A stretch of 64,000 nucleotides of DNA from Candidatus Levybacteria bacterium RIFCSPHIGHO2_01_FULL_37_17 (GCA_001782035.1 MFNL01000001.1:2643-66642); one strand, 5' to 3'; counted from the stretch's first letter, positions 3,359 to 61,630 are shown. The notes: generated by a model not told the origin, from the letters alone. A program made the numbers and translations.

Positions 3359-4297
3359 TTATCTTTGGTGATGTTCGATTGGCTGCTCTTCCATTCCATC
3401 TAACCATTTTTCAGCTTCAAGTGCTGCCGCAGAACCGTATCCTGCTGCAGTTACTGCCTGTTTATAATGGGAGTCATGTATGTCTCCTGCAACAAAAATG
3501 CCCTCTTTATTTGTTAAGTAATGTTCGTGAACCTTAATAAAACCGGCCTCATCTGTTTCTATATCTTTGAATTTTGCAGAGTTTGGAATGTGTCCAATGG
3601 CTACAAAAACACCGTCAATGGGCATATCGTAAGTCTCATTAGTTTTATTATTGAACAGGATTACAGACTGAACTCGGCCTTCACCCTTAATTTCTTTGAC
3701 CTCGCAGTTCCATAAAACTTTTATTTTAGGATTATCTAAAACTCTTTTTTGCATTATTTCCGAAGCCCTGAAAGAGTCTTTTCGGTGAACTATAGTAACC
3801 GAGGTTGCGAATTTAGATAAAACTGTCGCCTCCTCCATCGCACTGTCGCCTCCTCCAACTACTATTGTATTTTTGTTTCTGAAAAATACGCCGTCGCATG
3901 GAGCACACGAGCTTACTCCTCTTCCGATTTTATCCGCTTCTCCCGGAACCTCTAACCATTTTGTTTCTGCTCCCGTTGCAATAATTATTGCCTTTCCCTC
4001 GTATGTTTTTTCTCCTACGGTCACTTTAAAAGGCTTTTTTGAAAAATCAACGGACTCAAAATCCAAATCTATAAACTCTGTGCCAAACCTTTCTGCTTGT
4101 TTTCGCATAGCAGTCATTAAATCCGGCCCTTGAATGCCTTCCGGAAATCCGGGATAATTCTCAACTAAAGTAGTTAATTGGAGCTGTCCGCCCCATTTGA
4201 CGCCGGCTATAAGAAGCGTTTTTAAATCCGCCCTTGTTGTATAAATTGCTGCAGTTAAGCCAGCGGGGCCTGAGCCAAGAATTATGACGTCGTACAT
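3359..4297 (-). CDS. trxB: thioredoxin reductase
   Basis: MYDVIILGSGPAG FAD motif, CAPC redox-active disulfide, second GGGDSAMEEA NADPH motif. Confidence 0.9.
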   Translation of the reverse strand: MYDVIILGSGPAGLTAAIYTTRADLKTLLIAGVKWGGQLQLTTLVENYPGFPEGIQGPDLMTAMRKQAERFGTEFIDLDFESVDFSKKPFKVTVGEKTYEGKAIIIATGAETKWLEVPGEADKIGRGVSSCAPCDGVFFRNKNTIVVGGGDSAMEEATVLSKFATSVTIVHRKDSFRASEIMQKRVLDNPKIKVLWNCEVKEIKGEGRVQSVILFNNKTNETYDMPIDGVFVAIGHIPNSAKFKDIETDEAGFIKVHEHYLTNKEGIFVAGDIHDSHYKQAVTAAGYGSAAALEAEKWLDGMEEQPIEHHQR

Positions 4298-7338: not shown

Positions 7339-8118
7339 TTATCCATGAGGAATATAAGAAGTTGCAAGAAAGATAGAAACGATTCCCAAAATTAAAAATA
7401 AACTCTCCCAAAAAGCATAACCTTCTTTTTCTTCGTGATGAATTTCTGGTAAAAGATTAGTTAGAGCGATGTATAAAAAGAACCCTGTTGTTAAAGACAA
7501 AGAATATGGAATTATCCCCTCAATTCTTTCCCCTATAAAAAATGCTAGCAGCCCTCCGGCAACTGACAAAAGTGCTGAAAATATATTTATGATCAAAACT
7601 TTTTTCCTCTTCATTCCTTCATGAAGAAGAATTGCAAAGTCTCCTATTTCCTGTGGAATTTCGTGCGCAACAGTTGCAAAAGTTGTTATTAAACCAGCAG
7701 CCGGATTCACAATATAGGTAATTGAAATTACAACTCCATCAATAAAATTATGTACGCTATCACCTAAGATAACTAAGGGAATATTAACAGAGGTGTGTTT
7801 GCCTTTATTGACTTTTTGATGGTATTGAAACCAATGAATTCCCCTGTCTAAAAGATAAAAAAACAACATTCCGCCCAAAACCCAGAGAAAAACGTTAATT
7901 TCGCCACCTCCTGCATTTGCTACCTCTTCTGCGTGCTCTAGCGCTTCCGGTAAAAGTTCGAAAAAAGCAGTTCCCAAAAGCGCACCAGCTGCAAAAGATA
8001 CCAAAAGATGCACCAAGCCTTTGGAGATCTTTTTACCCAATAGAAGAAGTACGCCTCCTACAAGGGCTCCTACTCCTCCAACTAAGGTTAAAATAATAAT
8101 TACTTCGACTTGAGGCAT
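7339..8118 (-). CDS. ZIP-family (ZupT-like) divalent metal transporter
   Basis: HNFIDG and HEIPQEIGDFAIL motifs characteristic of ZIP/ZupT; multiple TM helices. Confidence 0.75.
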   Translation of the reverse strand: MPQVEVIIILTLVGGVGALVGGVLLLLGKKISKGLVHLLVSFAAGALLGTAFFELLPEALEHAEEVANAGGGEINVFLWVLGGMLFFYLLDRGIHWFQYHQKVNKGKHTSVNIPLVILGDSVHNFIDGVVISITYIVNPAAGLITTFATVAHEIPQEIGDFAILLHEGMKRKKVLIINIFSALLSVAGGLLAFFIGERIEGIIPYSLSLTTGFFLYIALTNLLPEIHHEEKEGYAFWESLFLILGIVSIFLATSYIPHG

Positions 8119-27795: not shown

Positions 27796-29110
27796 GTTTT
27801 CCTACTTCTTTTTTAAACTGCTCGCCGCGGTCTTTGTAGTTTTTAAACATGTCAAAAGAAGCACATGCCGGCGTTAGAAGAACTACATCACCAGAAAGAG
27901 CAATTTTAGATGCAGCCAAAACAATTTTCTCCATACTGTCTGCGCCTTCAATCAAAAGTATTTTGGAATTAGGCGACATTTCCGCTTTTATTCTTTCCCA
28001 TTCTTTTCCTATTCCAATTATTGCTTTTATATTCTTTTTTGAGCTCAAAACCTGGCCTAGTTCTTCGAAATTGCTGTTTTTAGAAGAGCCTCCAAGTATT
28101 AAAATTTCCGGATTTTCGAAAGACTCAATTGCCGCGATCGCAGCTTCAGGCACGACGGAAAACGAATCATTATAATATTCCACTCCGTTTACTTTACCAA
28201 CTAGCTCTAATCTGTGCTCGAGTCCTTTAAATGTTTTTAAAACTTCTTTTATATCCTCTACTTTTACTCCTTCCAAAAATGCGGCGAGCGCGGCAGAGCA
28301 CGCGTTTTCGAAATTGTGCTCACCTCGCAAGCCCAACTCACTTGTCTTAACTACCTCAATGTTCTCTCCGTTAGCTCGAATAACTATTTTTCCGTCTCTT
28401 GCAAAACACCCTTCCTCGACTTCGCGCTCTCTTGAGACAAAATAAACTTTTCCCTCAGTAAGAATGTCCGATTCGATACTGGGAGGATAGTCCCTATTAA
28501 GAATCGCAAAATCAGACTTAGTTTGAAAACGCAGAATATTTCTTTTGGCAGAGATATACTCCTCTACCGAGTCGTGATAATTTCTGTTGTTGGATCCGTC
28601 AAGATGGTCAGATGTAACCATTAACATTACTCCAATATGAGGGCTTTTGTGGAGATCCTGTAATTGGAAACTGGACAGTTCTAATACTACAACTGCCGAG
28701 GAATTTAATTGTTCAATAAATTCAAGAGGGGCCTTGCCTATGTTGCCGCCTAAATATACATCTTTTCCACTTTTTTTCAACATTTCATAAATTAATGTTG
28801 AAGTTGTTCCTTTTCCTTTGGTTCCGGTTACACCAATAATAGGACATGGACACATGTCAAAAAAGAGTTTTGTCTGAGAAGTAATTTTAGAAGTTATTTG
28901 TTCTGAATTATGAGTTATAAGTTTGCTAATTTTAATGCCGGGGGAACGGACTATTAAATCATATTTATCCAAACCGTCCAAGTAACTTTCCCCTTGAGAG
29001 ATGTCTAGAATTGTGACGTCTGCGCCTTTTCCTTTAAGAAATTTAGCGCTCGATTCTCCCTCAACAGCCTTACCAATTATAGCTATTTTTTTTTTGTTAA
29101 AGTCTTTCAT
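27785..29110 (-). CDS. murD: Mur ligase, MurD-like (UDP-MurNAc-L-Ala--glutamate ligase)
   Basis: GVTGTKGKGTT P-loop, N-terminal Rossmann-like domain of MurD, 441 aa. Not embedded in a dcw cluster in this window. Confidence 0.75.
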   Translation of the reverse strand: MKDFNKKKIAIIGKAVEGESSAKFLKGKGADVTILDISQGESYLDGLDKYDLIVRSPGIKISKLITHNSEQITSKITSQTKLFFDMCPCPIIGVTGTKGKGTTSTLIYEMLKKSGKDVYLGGNIGKAPLEFIEQLNSSAVVVLELSSFQLQDLHKSPHIGVMLMVTSDHLDGSNNRNYHDSVEEYISAKRNILRFQTKSDFAILNRDYPPSIESDILTEGKVYFVSREREVEEGCFARDGKIVIRANGENIEVVKTSELGLRGEHNFENACSAALAAFLEGVKVEDIKEVLKTFKGLEHRLELVGKVNGVEYYNDSFSVVPEAAIAAIESFENPEILILGGSSKNSNFEELGQVLSSKKNIKAIIGIGKEWERIKAEMSPNSKILLIEGADSMEKIVLAASKIALSGDVVLLTPACASFDMFKNYKDRGEQFKKEVGKLNL

Positions 29111-30323
29111 AAAACTTCATTAGGGAATCTTCCTTATATTCATCCCTCTTTGATGCTATTTCTAATGCTTTTTTAGCTTCCTGAGGGGTTCCAACACATT
29201 CAAACGGCTTAAAACCAGAAACTCCAATTGTTTCTTTAAGAAGAGGCAAAAGCTTCTCGTCCTCAAATAAATTTTTACCAAAAATTCCGATCAGCTCCTG
29301 CTTTGGAATAAAAGCCGAAAGTAGAATAAAAACAAATAAGCATTTTGGGCACTCACCACACCATCTTTTTCCCTTATTTCGATCATCGGAATTGATTTTA
29401 AAATTCCTGTTACAAGATGAAAACACGGTGAAATATTTATTATATTTTGAGAAAATTTCCGTTATTTCAAACTCATCTAGCTCTCTAAGATAGGACGAAT
29501 ACTCTACGTCTGGGGTTATAAATTTCTGCGAATAATCTTGGAATAAACGTTCGAATTCTTCTGATTTACTCCACTGGTGATTTATCTCCTCGCCTAAATA
29601 GTTTACGTTACCAAAGTTTGCGCTTTTTTCATTAGATACCACCACTTCTGAATAGTCGTAAAAAGCTGCAGCCATAATTCCCAAAAAAGCATAGATCGCA
29701 GATACGGGAACGTGACCATTATAGGTGTCTTGCCTCTGATTTAGTTCAAAAAGTTTAGTGTCTAATTCTGTTTTGATAACAATAGGAATCTTCCCTATAA
29801 TTTTTGCTATTTTTAATGGAATAGCGTGTTCTCCTATCATTAGGATATCAAACGGCTTTTCCATCTCTTTGAATTTTTCCGAAGTAACAATAGAGTCTTT
29901 TCCGCCACCCAACAGCACGAGAGACCGAGTTTTGCGCGGTATAGAGATAACGGAAGCGGCATTCACTTCATAAGGAAATTTAATAAGTCCTCTATAATCA
30001 ATCTTATTCTTGTAGAAAAACTCCCCAAGACCTTTTGTATAGACTTTATTCCAAAAGTCGGCCTGCTCTCGGTTTAAGCTATTTTTTTGAATTATGATTT
30101 GTTTTGGGCAATATAACTTCCAGTAGCTAATTCCCAATATCAAACTCAGATTATCAAAAATCTTTTTTAGAAACTGTTCTGGGATTTCTGCTTCTACTGA
30201 AGGGAAATAAATTTTTTCGACAAATTGATGACTTTCTTCTCCTTCAACTGAATAATCAAAGGAGGCTTGACCTTTCTCAAGGTCATATGTATAACCTTTG
30301 AATGTGAATTGAATGCTATTCAT
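29097..30323 (-). CDS. PP-loop (adenine nucleotide alpha-hydrolase superfamily) ATPase with C-terminal Cys cluster; function unknown
   Basis: LLGGGKDS PP-loop (SGGxDS-like) at ~aa 135, C-x17-CGECPKC cluster ~180 aa downstream (QueC-like spacing); 14-nt overlap with murD start. Confidence 0.5.
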   Translation of the reverse strand: MNSIQFTFKGYTYDLEKGQASFDYSVEGEESHQFVEKIYFPSVEAEIPEQFLKKIFDNLSLILGISYWKLYCPKQIIIQKNSLNREQADFWNKVYTKGLGEFFYKNKIDYRGLIKFPYEVNAASVISIPRKTRSLVLLGGGKDSIVTSEKFKEMEKPFDILMIGEHAIPLKIAKIIGKIPIVIKTELDTKLFELNQRQDTYNGHVPVSAIYAFLGIMAAAFYDYSEVVVSNEKSANFGNVNYLGEEINHQWSKSEEFERLFQDYSQKFITPDVEYSSYLRELDEFEITEIFSKYNKYFTVFSSCNRNFKINSDDRNKGKRWCGECPKCLFVFILLSAFIPKQELIGIFGKNLFEDEKLLPLLKETIGVSGFKPFECVGTPQEAKKALEIASKRDEYKEDSLMKFYERL

Positions 30324-30366
30324 TGAGGCTAATTATACTTATATTGAGGGCCTTAAGCAAGAAATG

Positions 30367-30438
30367 TACCAGGGGTGGGGATCGAACCCACGACCGCAGG
30401 GATATGAATCCTGTGCTCTACCACTGAGCTACCCTGGC
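30367..30438 (-). tRNA. tRNA-Met (anticodon CAU), elongator-like
   Basis: Cloverleaf read by eye: acceptor GCCAGGG/CCCTGGT (G1:U72), D-arm GCTCAGTGGTAGAGC, anticodon loop TTCATAT, T-arm GTGGGTTCGATCCCCAC; CCA not encoded. Confidence 0.75.
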
Positions 30439-30497
30439 GCGAGTCTATTTTAACAGTTGTTATAAACGAGGTCAAATGTTATAATTTATGCTCAACG

Positions 30498-30566
30498 CGC
30501 GGGGTAGTGTACAGTGCACGTGAGGCTCATAATCTCACAGGCTAGGCGCAACTCCTAGCCCCGCAA
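30498..30566 (+). tRNA. divergent initiator-like tRNA (anticodon CAU; C1xA72; noncanonical T- and D-loops); possibly functional tRNA-fMet or pseudogene
   Basis: Acceptor CGCGGGG...CCCCGCAA identical to E. coli tRNA-fMet ends, anticodon loop CTCATAA. T-loop is CGCAACT (no TTC) and the D-arm is 3 nt short; all four stems pair. Confidence 0.45.
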
Positions 30567-30571
30567 CAAAA

Positions 30572-33005: not shown

Positions 33006-33006
33006 G

Positions 33007-33078
33007 TGCTCCCGCTTGGATTCGAACCAAGGACATCTACTTTATAAGAGTAGCGCTCTACCACTGAGCTACAGGAGC
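33007..33078 (-). tRNA. tRNA-Ile (anticodon UAU)
   Basis: Acceptor GCTCCTG/CGGGAGC, D-arm GCTCAGTGGTAGAGC, anticodon stem CTACT/AGTAG with loop CTTATAA, T-arm CTTGGTTCGAATCCAAG. Confidence 0.7.
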
Positions 33079-37879: not shown

Positions 37880-38010
37880 AACTCCTCGTTCCCGAGAAGC
37901 TTAATAATTTCCTGGTCCCGGGAACTGCATAAGGTGGTTTTCCGACTTTACGGTAGCGGCACTGTGGAGGAATTACACCTCGCTTACCCTTTCCTTATTG
38001 ATACTTTTAT
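37880..38010 (-). promoter_or_regulatory. cobalamin (AdoCbl) riboswitch-like leader
   Basis: Minus-strand RNA reads AGGGUAAGC...GGUGUAAUUCC...CCGCUACCGUAA...AGUCGGAAAACCACC, matching GGUGnAAnUCC, the B12 box (CCGCCACUGUAA, 10/12) and AGYCAGGAGACC. Followed by GUUCCCG/CGGGAAC hairpin abutting the SD. Confidence 0.5.
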
Positions 38011-56774: not shown

Positions 56775-56800
56775 CCCCGCATTTAGCAGGGTTTTATTTG
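56775..56800 (-). terminator. rho-independent terminator following tmRNA
   Basis: Minus strand AAAACCCUGCUAAAUGCGGGGUUUUUUAUU: GC stem plus U tract immediately after tmRNA 3' end. Confidence 0.5.
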
Positions 56801-57163
56801 TGGAGATGTCGGGAAGTGATCCCGAGTCCAAGAAGGTATTTTTTCAAACTTCTACAAGCTTATTTTGTTATTTTTTTGATCGCCTTATTCTTTGAAAACA
56901 AACATCCATAAATAAGGTCAAGGTTATAAATTCAAAAGAGTTCTAACCATCTACTCTTTCAATTTCTCGACTAAGTTTATGCCCAAAATGTTTCATCGAG
57001 AAAAAACATTAAGGACAGCTCAACTAGTTAAGCAAAAGCAAAACGAGTTGGAGCGAATGAAGAGTTTCCTCTATCATTTATATTTTTGACTTAGTTTTAC
57101 GACTGTGAGTCTCGTCGGCTTGCAGTTTTTAAAGAACTATCTTGTCGATGCATTTGCATCCCC
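56801..57163 (-). ncRNA. ssrA: tmRNA (ssrA), standard one-piece
   Basis: 5' GGGGATG pairs with 3' CATCTCC (G3:U wobble) + discriminator A; T-arm-like CGGGATCACTTCCCG. Internal tag frame ...NDRGNSSFAPTRFAFA-TAA (stop at 57028-57030). Lies 350 nt from smpB. Confidence 0.7.
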
Positions 57164-59618: not shown

Positions 59619-59712
59619 GGAGAAGTCGCATAGTTTGGTCCATTGCGAGGGTTTGCTAAACCCTTGAGCCTGAATAAGGCTCGCGTGAGTTCGAATCTCA
59701 CCTTCTCCGCCA
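59619..59712 (+). tRNA. tRNA-Ser (anticodon GCU), CCA encoded
   Basis: Acceptor GGAGAAG/CTTCTCC, anticodon stem AGGGT/ACCCT loop TTGCTAA, long variable arm GAGCCTGAATAAGGCTC, T-arm GTGAGTTCGAATCTCAC, GCCA end. Confidence 0.8.
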
Positions 59713-59715
59713 TTC

Positions 59716-60216
59716 ATGCAGATTTTAAAAACAATTCACGAGGATTATCTGCGCTCATTAATGTTTGGACTCCAAGACGGAATTGTTTCTACTACGGGAG
59801 TGGTTATAGGGATTTCAACCGGGGTCGAAAACAAAGCAATAATAATCCTTGCTGCTTTTGTTGCAATAGCTGTTGAGGCTACTTCTATGGCAGCGGGCCA
59901 ATATTCTTCTGAAAAAGCAGTTCATCAAATGGATAAGACCGGAAGGCATACAGATAGTCTTGTTTTAGGAGCAATAATTATGTTTTTTGCGTATCTTTTA
60001 GGAGGAGCTTTCCCAATACTTCCAATTATATTTTTCCCGCAGGAAATATTTAGAATAATCGCTATTATTTCAGCATTTTTTGGTTTATTTTTAATCGGGT
60101 ACTTAAAAGGTCAACTTGTTGAACACAGACCGCTACGTTCTGCGATAGAATTATTTATAATTGGCTCTGTTGCAACAATTGTTGGGGTTGTGGTGGGTTA
60201 CTTGTTTAGAGTTTAG
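59716..60216 (+). CDS. VIT1/CCC1-family (DUF125) membrane protein
   Basis: GLQDGIVSTTGVVIG motif of VIT family, 4-5 TM helices; starts 4 nt after the tRNA. Confidence 0.6.
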   Translation: MQILKTIHEDYLRSLMFGLQDGIVSTTGVVIGISTGVENKAIIILAAFVAIAVEATSMAAGQYSSEKAVHQMDKTGRHTDSLVLGAIIMFFAYLLGGAFPILPIIFFPQEIFRIIAIISAFFGLFLIGYLKGQLVEHRPLRSAIELFIIGSVATIVGVVVGYLFRV

Positions 60217-60217
60217 G

Positions 60218-60301
60218 CGGAAGGTAGAGGATTCGAACCTCTGAGAGCTTTCGCTCACTGGTTTTCAAAACCAGCGCCATGAACCGCTCGGCCAACCTTC
60301 C
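60218..60301 (-). tRNA. tRNA-Ser (anticodon UGA)
   Basis: Acceptor GGAAGGT/ACCTTCC, anticodon stem CTGGT/ACCAG loop TTTGAAA, long variable arm, T-arm GAGGTTCGAATCCTC. Confidence 0.8.
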
Positions 60302-60327
60302 TTGGCTCAATTTTAACATAGGAAAAG

Positions 60328-60747
60328 CTATTTTAGTAGTTTTCGAGCTTCTTTCCAAACCTTTTTATCCGATGGATAAGTTAGTGTTTGTTCAACCTTT
60401 TCTTTTTCTGTCCATTTTACTTGACTCATTTCCCAATCGTGCTTTTTTACGTCCCCTCCGACTGCTTTCATAAGAAAATAATAAACAGTTTTTCTTCTTT
60501 TTTCTTCATCCCAAACATACCAATAAGTTATGGGAGTTAACGCTTTTTCAATTTTTGCCTCAACGCCGGTTTCTTCTTTTACTTCACGTATTGCGGCTTC
60601 TTCTTTGCCCTCGCCTTTTTTATGGTCGCCAATTAGTCCTTTGGGGAAAACCCAACCTTTGTGTCCTGAATGTTGTCCGAGAAGAATATAAATACTTCCA
60701 GCCTCTTTTTTGTGGACTATTCCTCCTGCAGAAAACTCAAATCTCAT
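60328..60747 (-). CDS. NUDIX hydrolase
   Basis: Perfect Nudix box GDHKKGEGKEEAAIREVKEETGV. Confidence 0.75.
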   Translation of the reverse strand: MRFEFSAGGIVHKKEAGSIYILLGQHSGHKGWVFPKGLIGDHKKGEGKEEAAIREVKEETGVEAKIEKALTPITYWYVWDEEKRRKTVYYFLMKAVGGDVKKHDWEMSQVKWTEKEKVEQTLTYPSDKKVWKEARKLLK

Positions 60748-60762
60748 TTATTCCTTTCGTTG

Positions 60763-60853
60763 TGGCGGAGAGGGGGAGATTCGAACTCCCGGTCGTCTTA
60801 CGACGACATTCACTTTCCAAGCGAACGCACTAGACCAGCTATGCGACCTCTCC
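60763..60853 (-). tRNA. tRNA-Ser (anticodon GGA), CCA encoded
   Basis: Acceptor GGAGAGG/CCTCTCC, anticodon stem TTCGC/GTGAA loop TTGGAAA, long variable arm GTCGTCGTAAGACGAC, T-arm GGGAGTTCGAATCTCCC. Confidence 0.8.
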
Positions 60854-60911
60854 TTGGTTTTCAATTATAATTAATGTTGACTTATTTCTCAATCTCTCAT
60901 ACAGTTAAATT

Positions 60912-61433
60912 ATGCCCGAACATCACGCAAAACCCCATGAAATTAATGACGTTAAAACTCTTTACGAATGGCAATCTCCCGGACGGCCTTTTAAAAAAAG
61001 AGGTAGACAATTTTATCTAACTTCCGTTTTGATTGCTTTATTTGTTGAAGCAATACTTTTCCTTTTTTCCCAGTATCTATTAATGGTCGTGGTTGTTGCA
61101 CTTGTTTTTGTTGCTTTCGCACTTTCTTATGTTCCTCCGAAAAATTTTTACTATAAAATCTCAACCGAAGGAATTATGGTTGAGGACAGGTTCTTCTTAT
61201 GGAAAGAGCTTTATGATTTCTATTATAAAAAAAGCGAGAATTTAGAAACTCTCCACATTAGAACCGAAGCATTTATTCCGGGCGAACTTATTCTAACCTT
61301 CCACGAATCTGATAAGGAAAAAATAAAACACGCACTAATTCCATATCTTTCCTTTAGGGAATATATAAGGCCTACATTTGTAGACAAAGCAGCGGATTGG
61401 CTAAGTCGCAATTTTCCCCTGGAGAATAAGTAA
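60912..61433 (+). CDS. hypothetical membrane protein
   Basis: 173 aa, two central TM helices, Tyr/Lys-rich C-terminal domain. Confidence 0.4.
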   Translation: MPEHHAKPHEINDVKTLYEWQSPGRPFKKRGRQFYLTSVLIALFVEAILFLFSQYLLMVVVVALVFVAFALSYVPPKNFYYKISTEGIMVEDRFFLWKELYDFYYKKSENLETLHIRTEAFIPGELILTFHESDKEKIKHALIPYLSFREYIRPTFVDKAADWLSRNFPLENK

Positions 61434-61467
61434 TTTGAGCTCCAAAATGCTATAATTGAAGCCAGGA

Positions 61468-61540
61468 GTGCCCGTAGTTCAATGGATAGAACGCCCGGTT
61501 GCGGACCAGGTGGTTGGAGGTTCGATTCCTCTCGGGCACG
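61468..61540 (+). tRNA. tRNA-Arg (anticodon GCG)
   Basis: Acceptor GTGCCCG/CGGGCAC, D-arm GTTCAATGGATAGAAC, anticodon loop TTGCGGA (one C:A mismatch in stem), T-arm GGAGGTTCGATTCCTCT. Confidence 0.6.
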
Positions 61541-61544
61541 CAAA

Positions 61545-61630
61545 GGAGGGTTCGCATAGCGGCCAATTGCACGAGTTTCGAAAACTCGAGGAGCAATCCT
61601 ACGCAGGTTCGAATCCTGCACCCTCCGCCA
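61545..61630 (+). tRNA. tRNA-Ser (anticodon CGA), CCA encoded
   Basis: Acceptor GGAGGGT/ACCCTCC, anticodon stem CGAGT/ACTCG loop TTCGAAA, long variable arm, T-arm GCAGGTTCGAATCCTGC. Confidence 0.8.

Follow-up and report, generated by a model that had tools for sequence, protein, structure and literature searches.

Two tRNA genes with the anticodon CAU lie side by side in the genome of Candidatus Levybacteria bacterium RIFCSPHIGHO2_01_FULL_37_17, and one of them joins the acceptor ends of an initiator tRNA to an unusual body. Is this gene a working initiator or the remnant of one? The original prediction, made for a stretch of 64,000 nucleotides (GCA_001782035.1 MFNL01000001.1:2643-66642; here called the window), left the choice between a noncanonical initiator tRNA and a decaying duplicate. 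Our analysis favors the former. We consider it about 85% probable, from sequence comparison, that the plus-strand gene (30498-30566, from C1 to the discriminator base A73) is a functional, structurally reduced tRNA-fMet gene, one of a family conserved across Microgenomates-type Patescibacteria; the Microgenomates are ultra-small bacteria of groundwater. ARAGORN, the sequence itself, its fold, a family covariance model, conservation, and covariation all bear on this assignment.

A divergent pair of CAU tRNA genes

ARAGORN called eight tRNA genes in the window, two with a CAU anticodon. Both were called as tRNA-Met(CAU), one at 30366-30438 (minus strand) and the other at 30498-30567 (plus strand), the latter with its anticodon placed at position 31. 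They are divergent, with a spacer of 59 nt, and the program proposed for checking the predicted divergent pair recovered it. The gene order is TrpRS, Tgt, MurD, MurL, the CAU tRNA pair, a Nudix-like protein, DivIC, a Xer-type recombinase, tRNA-Ile(UAU), and a TraG-like ATPase. Unchanged copies of the 248-amino-acid Nudix-like protein, which adjoins the tRNA pair, occur on Rifle aquifer scaffolds.

Several other features of the window were recorded. The end of murD is overlapped by the MurL-type epimerase gene (29097-30323, minus strand), which matches MurL_N and MurL_epimerase_C of Pfam; among relatives, as for this epimerase gene, a glutamate racemase gene stands in its place in one locus (L013), and it is absent from another (L011). 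An AdoCbl-II riboswitch (37929-37998, minus strand; 47.4 bits) lies upstream of an NrdR/ribonucleotide-reductase and Cob_adeno_trans region, and a tmRNA gene (109.2 bits) occupies 56798-57163 on the minus strand. Four tRNA-Ser genes (GCU, UGA, GGA, and CGA) and a tRNA-Arg(GCG) gene are packed within 2 kb at 59619-61630.

Initiator ends on a reduced body

Segment by segment, the compact tRNA reads CGCGGGG UA GUGU ACAGU GCAC G UGAGG CUCAUAA UCUCA CAGG, followed by CUAGG CGCAACU CCUAG CCCCGCA A. The acceptor stem (30498-30504 with 30559-30565) begins with the mismatch C1xA72 (C at 30498, A at 30565). The D-arm (30507-30519) has 13 nt, with a 4-bp stem and a 5-nt loop in which A18 and G19 are at 30513 and 30514. 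The anticodon arm (30521-30537) carries CAU at 30528-30530 within the loop CUCAUAA (30526-30532). A 4-nt variable region (30538-30541) leads to the T-arm (30542-30558), where C54, G55, and C56 are at 30547-30549. Only C74 of the CCA end is encoded (30567). The minimum-free-energy fold is a cloverleaf (-26.7 kcal/mol, z = -2.1), which agrees with ARAGORN and with the full cloverleaf that had been proposed.

The acceptor strands, C1xA72, A73, and the anticodon loop are those of E. coli tRNA-fMet, as predicted. The reference sequence used for this comparison was checked and found at 100% identity in 5,426 E. coli genomes, which have a median of 4 copies each. Direct reading also confirmed the T-loop CGCAACU, without TTC, and the loss of the three G:C pairs of the anticodon stem: A29:U41, G30:C40, and G31.U39 leave one G:C pair among 29-31:39-41. 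The description of the D-arm was half right. There is no GG, the D-loop having AG, but the stem has 4 bp rather than 3 (G10:C25, U11:A24, G12:C23, and U13.G22), all of them invariant or nearly so across the family.

In bacterial initiators, C1xA72, G2:C71, C3:G70, and A73 are the established determinants of formylation, and the 1x72 mismatch is the antideterminant for EF-Tu. The compact tRNA has G2:C71, C3:G70, and A73, identical to E. coli tRNA-fMet. Two classical hallmarks are altered: one of the three G:C pairs remains, and an invariant U11:A24 takes the place of A11:U24. Elongator tRNAs have Y11:R24 in the D-stem. The anticodon stem has a precedent: Shetty et al. (NAR 2017, PMC5389676) describe au/GC/gu as a natural initiator variant of some mycoplasmas, report that such initiators sustain E. 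coli after removal of its four native initiator genes, and name G30 as their crucial, essential base. A group I intron in two relatives points in the same direction. In L013 (3553-3815, minus strand), and also in L014, the compact tRNA is split between U33 and C34; the L013 intron matches Rfam RF00028 (74.6 bits, 3592-3795), the gene was missed by ARAGORN, and its pair 7:66 is A:U. The junction 33/34 is the reported site of tRNA-fMet group I introns (bioRxiv 10.1101/2025.07.03.662931).

A tRNA that the general model misses

In a search of 401 nt, the general tRNA model Rfam RF00005 (gathering threshold, 29 bits) had no match to the compact tRNA of the window even at E <= 10, nor did it match the L069 copy, which also has a CGC T-loop. 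Seven relatives scored between 40.6 and 46.2 bits; six of these have a pyrimidine at position 55 (TTC or TCC), and one has TGC. Because RF00005 scores the TTC, TCC, and TGC relatives and misses the CGC forms, the window copy, with A18, C54, and G55, is the most derived end of a graded family. A covariance model built for the family (R1) gave the window copy 92.2 bits (E about 1e-21). This was the only strong, initiator-type match of R1 in the 64 kb, the next being the elongator tRNA-Met with 39.7 bits.

Conservation of the compact tRNA

If the gene were decaying, it should have diverged along with its surroundings. In two related loci (L011 and L012), the Nudix-like protein is 74% identical to that of the window, and the compact tRNA is 100% identical over 70 nt, with flanks that diverge at once. 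The MurL position is taken by another gene in these loci, and their elongator tRNA-Met differs from that of the window at two positions. A gene called as inositol-phosphatase in L011 (6711-7565, plus strand) overlaps the compact tRNA (7533-7602, minus strand) by 33 nt; this call probably over-extends.

We scanned 185,579 species-representative genomes with the pattern CGCGGGG N17-22 CUCAUAA N24-28 CCCCGCAA, which constrained nothing beyond the acceptor strands, the CUCAUAA loop, and the shortness of the 5' half, and obtained at least 120 matches. The D-arm UAGUGUA...GCAC lies outside the pattern and was present in 114 of the 120 matches listed. With the window copy, the scan yielded at least 76 distinct sequences. 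At least 15 species-representative genomes carry the exact 70-nt sequence of the window. Nine of them have a MurD match, with 54-68% identity to the MurD of the window, and Tgt, where found, is 53-67% identical. The invariance of 1-7/66-73 and of the anticodon loop in this first set is partly imposed by the pattern. Because the first scan had fixed the acceptor stem, we ran a second one on metagenomes in which a base other than G was required at position 7 and the 3' strand was left free; it gave 35 distinct sequences. Together, the two scans provide at least 111 distinct family members. Where records are named, they belong to Levy-, Gottesman-, Woese-, and Roizmanbacteria, "Microgenomates," and "Patescibacteria group."

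The identity of 70 nt between genomes whose proteins are only 54-74% identical shows that the compact tRNA is not decaying and points to very strong purifying selection. The idea of a decaying duplicate is not borne out. The original prediction would have been abandoned if a canonical tRNA-fMet existed elsewhere and this element were not conserved; the element is strictly conserved among relatives, so this combination does not apply. Acceptor identity, conservation, compensatory changes, the promoter-like site, and the conserved pairing with a tRNA-Met gene all support the other half of the prediction, a noncanonical initiator tRNA.

Roughly half of the loci that carry the family (L017-L131) are deposited as "uncultured Gammaproteobacteria/Pseudomonadales," and others as Acidiferrales, Limnocylindrales, or Limisphaerales. 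In many contigs labeled in this way, the Xer, DivIC, TraG-like, MurD, and Tgt genes of the Levybacteria window recur; Xer is roughly 40-85% identical and the TraG-like protein 57-85%. Because of this common gene neighborhood, the label "Gammaproteobacteria/Pseudomonadales" looks wrong and unreliable for these contigs. Short CAU tRNAs with C1xA72 also turned up outside the family, in L133 (7541-7611, plus strand), L083 (253-322, minus strand), L047 (1421-1490, minus strand), and L109 (1678-1745, plus strand). In the T-loops of L133 (labeled Nitrosotalea; UGCGAAU) and L083 (labeled Verrucomicrobiaceae; UGCGCCU), G stands where U55 is expected, and the tRNAs of this kind labeled Terrybacteria and Acidobacteria have TTC.

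Compensatory changes maintain the cloverleaf

In the alignment of 76 sequences, 95.2% of the cells at paired positions are paired, compared with 87.3% in shuffled alignments and 32-51% in controls with a slid structure. Eleven pairs have changed on both sides, a number that none of 500 shuffles reached; shuffled alignments gave 7.4 +/- 0.8 such pairs and the slid controls 2-5. Compensatory changes occur in all five T-stem pairs, at 28:42, and at 27:43, which is UA in 34 sequences, GC in 32, and CG in 8. There is an extra Watson-Crick pair at 26:44 (G:C in 49, A:U in 27). RNAalifold returned the same cloverleaf, with no structure supplied, and none of the at least 111 distinct family members has a broken helix. 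The four-arm cloverleaf is kept by compensatory substitutions.

Other positions hardly vary. A29:U41, G30:C40, and G31.U39 are kept in 75-76 of the 76 sequences, and a GC/GC/gu anticodon stem was found in eight metagenome relatives from the set of 35. U11:A24 is present in 76/76 sequences, and U8:A14 is invariant. The D-arm of the family has 13-14 nt, with a 4-bp stem that includes U13.G22, a 5-6-nt loop, and no nucleotides between positions 15 and 18. In the metagenome set, where the search left the 3' strand of the acceptor stem free, A72, and with it the mismatch, and A73 were kept in 35/35 sequences, both outside the search pattern, and the 3' partners of G2:C71 and C3:G70 were conserved, while 7:66 was A:U in 28, U:A in 4, and C:G in 1. 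The Levitt pair 15:48 is variable (C:G 27, C:A 14, A:U 11, others 24), with a numbering that is ambiguous in a 4-nt variable region.

An apparently remodeled elbow

The D- and T-loops had been called aberrant. Their sequence is indeed unusual; the contacts between them do not appear to be lost, because G19:C56 never varies across the family and positions 18 and 55 change as a pair. Hence, the elbow is probably remodeled rather than abolished. Among the 76 sequences of the first set, G18 occurs with U or C55 in 39, and A18 (36) or C18 (1) occurs with G55 in 37, with no exceptions (Fisher P about 1e-22, a value that ignores relatedness). The metagenome set has 33 sequences of the G type and 2 of the A type, again with no exceptions. 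Both sets together, at least 111 distinct sequences, comprise 72 with G18-U/C55 and 39 with A18 (once C18)-G55. By parsimony, at least about 8 changes between the two states are required on a neighbor-joining tree of Xer, the protein encoded nearby, from 66 loci; because a single-protein tree is noisy, we read this number only as several independent switches.

The window copy has C54 and A58, and 60 of the 76 sequences have U54 and A58. C54 is nearly confined to the A18/G55 background, which accounts for 15 of the 16 sequences with C54. The remodeling is specific to the initiator, because the other seven tRNAs of the window keep GG and GTTCGA. According to PMC7912444, conservation of U55 (as Psi55) and G18 is universal in all three domains. 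The alignments indicate that this lineage has exchanged the near-universal G18-U55 contact for a co-varying A18-G55, in many cases with C54 as well.

The elongator neighbor and tRNA-Ile(UAU)

The gene on the minus strand (30367-30438) is a canonical tRNA-Met(CAU) that was called by ARAGORN and scores 65.9 bits with RF00005. Its ends form the pair G1.U72, the D-stem contains C11:G24, the D-loop keeps GG, the T-loop reads GTTCGAT, and A31xC39 is a mismatch. Its anticodon stem is G29 G30 A31 / C39 C40 C41, as had been noted, and was taken to be one base from the initiator signature. We reject a near-initiator reading. GGA/CCC was found in only 3 of the 78 neighbors with a readable stem, so the resemblance is a coincidence; the 1:72 pair is formed here, neighbors in the relatives likewise begin with G1, and position 11 pairs with 24 as C11:G24. 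A second CAU tRNA gene lies near the compact one in 83 of 110 related loci, and all 83 begin with G1, not C1; in 55 of the 83 the two genes are divergent, with a spacer of 57-265 nt. These features mark the neighbor as an ordinary elongator tRNA-Met.

The neighbors have peculiarities of their own. Among the 78 readable stems, the 31:39 mismatch is AxC in 26, the window copy included, and AxA in 15. Elongator-type tRNA-Met(CAU) genes in L026 (1658-1730, minus strand), L049 (5577-5649, plus strand), and L102 (3664-3736, minus strand) have an atypical 5' half (GGCAGGAAGUGGACUGGUGUCCCGGGGCG...) where a UAGCUCAGUGGUAGAGC D-arm is usual.

A tRNA-Ile with a UAU anticodon, which is uncommon in bacteria, is encoded 2.4 kb from the compact tRNA (33006-33078, minus strand; ARAGORN, Rfam 75.2 bits) and also in 32 of the related 8-kb loci. 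This suggests that AUA is decoded without lysidine (TilS) in this clade. Because tRNA-Ile(UAU) would read AUA with no need for a lysidine-modified CAU tRNA, two CAU tRNAs, an initiator and an elongator, suffice.

Promoter-like sites and the proposed life of the tRNA

A sigma-70-type promoter-like site (30457-30485, plus strand; TTGTTA-17 nt-TATAAT, 10/12 consensus matches) precedes the compact tRNA gene, and its -10 hexamer ends 12 nt before C1. A second site (30447-30475, minus strand; TTGACC-17 nt-TAAAAT, also 10/12) faces the elongator tRNA-Met gene. The two overlap in the spacer, and each has TG before the -10 hexamer. A consensus scan of the region gave 4 sites, compared with 0.8 expected. 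Within the family, a perfect TATAAT stands no more than 30 nt upstream in 53 of the 111 distinct upstream regions, most often starting at -15/-16; the chance rate in such AT-rich sequence is estimated at about 5%. Among 114 family genes for which the sequence reaches far enough downstream, 11 encode CCA; usually only C74 is present.

From these data we can outline how the compact tRNA may be made and used. It would be transcribed from its own promoter, RNase P would cut the transcript at C1, and CCA would be added after transcription, since it is rarely encoded. MetRS presumably charges the tRNA through CAU and A73. Formylation is likely because the acceptor-stem determinants are the same as in E. 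coli tRNA-fMet, and the 1x72 mismatch would keep the tRNA off EF-Tu. The 30S P site may accept it through G30:C40, as shown for the au/GC/gu variants in E. coli. The divergent neighbor would serve as elongator tRNA-Met and tRNA-Ile(UAU) would read AUA.

DISCUSSION

Is the compact tRNA the only initiator of its genome? Most likely it is. A canonical initiator was not found in about 1.8 Mb of related DNA, all of it near the compact tRNA gene (8-kb loci). A crude motif scan of six-frame translations of the window and the related loci, a small fraction of the genomes, did not find fmt, def, truB, or tilS. A wider proposition is that Microgenomates-type Patescibacteria use a miniaturized tRNA as their sole initiator and that, in addition, a large sub-lineage including this Levybacteria has rebuilt G18-Psi55 as A18-G55, often with C54. 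We would put the chances of this combined proposition at even.

The reading of the gene as a functional initiator has to be weighed against three others. A pseudogene or decaying copy of tRNA-fMet would be consistent with the escape from RF00005 and with the missing TTC, the missing GG, and the single remaining G:C pair out of three; this reading is nevertheless very improbable in view of one identical sequence across genomes with 54-74% protein identity, at least 111 distinct members with compensatory changes and intact helices, the perfect 18/55 coupling, and a promoter-like site of its own. We give equally little credit to an exchange of roles, in which the compact tRNA would be the elongator tRNA-Met or a lysidine-type tRNA-Ile2 and the neighbor, with its stem one base from three G:C pairs, the initiator. 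The neighbor has a paired 1:72 (G.U here, G1 in all 83 loci) and C11:G24, and its GGA/CCC stem recurs in only 3 of 78 readable cases; the compact tRNA has C1xA72, which is established to block the use of EF-Tu, and the presence of tRNA-Ile(UAU) makes a tRNA-Ile2(CAU) unnecessary.

More credible, though still unlikely on our analysis, is a specialized second CAU tRNA that would act beside a canonical initiator encoded elsewhere, either as a conditional alternative initiator or as a Met donor for a non-ribosomal reaction. The altered elbow and the position of the gene next to MurL and MurD, the latter syntenic in many relatives, lend this some appeal. The staphylococcal non-proteinogenic tRNA-Gly, which serves cell-wall synthesis, has altered D- and T-loop consensus sequences and avoids EF-Tu. 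We regard the likeness, with a compact gene that adjoins peptidoglycan genes, as a lead only; the staphylococcal tRNA carries a different amino acid and has no initiator mismatch at 1x72. Against a specialized tRNA stand the retention of C1xA72, G2:C71, C3:G70, A73, and G30:C40 wherever they are free to vary, the elongator type of the only other CAU tRNA in the 83 loci, and the lack of a canonical initiator in the related DNA around the gene. Moreover, small Patescibacteria genomes rarely keep redundant tRNAs. We therefore return to a functional initiator as the preferred reading and compare it with known systems.

The compact tRNA resembles E. coli tRNA-fMet (metZ/metY type) in the loop CUCAUAA, the CGCGGGG/CCCCGCA acceptor, C1xA72, A73, G30:C40, and the cloverleaf. 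It is shorter, with 69 nt before CCA instead of 74, and its D-arm has 13 nt instead of 17, with a 5-nt loop that lacks positions 16/17. U11:A24 replaces A11:U24, and A29:U41 and G31.U39 stand where E. coli has G:C pairs. The pair 26:44 is Watson-Crick, the variable region has 4 nt, the T-loop is CGCAACU (C54 G55) rather than UUCAAAU, and position 18 is A rather than G. Its anticodon stem is exactly the A:U, G:C, G.U of the mycoplasma au/GC/gu initiators, to which it adds a short D-arm and the change at 18/55; as described, those variants concern the anticodon stem only (PMC5389676). In eukaryotic cytoplasmic initiator tRNA-Met (A54/A60), too, an initiator-specific departure of the T-loop at position 54 goes along with canonical other tRNAs (PMC7912444). 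The eukaryotic initiator, however, keeps U55 and G18, uses A54-A58 and A1:U72, and is unformylated, whereas in the compact tRNA position 55 is G and has changed together with 18. Metazoan mitochondrial tRNAs share the short D-loops and the loss of the GG and T-Psi-C consensus; in them, elbow contacts are often lost and evolution is fast, whereas the compact tRNA belongs to a cellular genome, is under strong selection, has an invariant G19:C56, and co-varies at 18/55. We found no description of the compact tRNA in full-text literature on initiator tRNA or tRNA arms of CPR, Patescibacteria, or Microgenomates, a result that does not prove novelty. A18-G55 would be a repeatedly evolved, natural double-mutant cycle of a tertiary pair, and one that is apparently undescribed.

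The findings have a practical side. Because RF00005 misses the form with a CGC T-loop, model-based annotation could leave the genomes of this lineage without an initiator tRNA. The R1 covariance model recovers the window gene at 92 bits.

The initiator tRNA is among the most conserved RNAs, and the compact family widens its known structural range without altering the view of what it does. In a class-level bacterial clade, the alpha region of the D-loop, two of the three G:C pairs, and A11:U24 would be dispensable; C1xA72, G2:C71, C3:G70, G30:C40, and G19:C56 would be indispensable in the same clade. The family also represents a natural covariation experiment on the 18-55 contact. If the reading of a sole initiator with A18-G55 is true, the single most important tRNA of the cell cannot carry T54 or Psi55, because its elbow has been rebuilt. 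RNase P, the CCA-adding enzyme, Fmt, IF2, and the P-site contacts would then be co-adapted to this tRNA in bacteria with reduced ribosomes.
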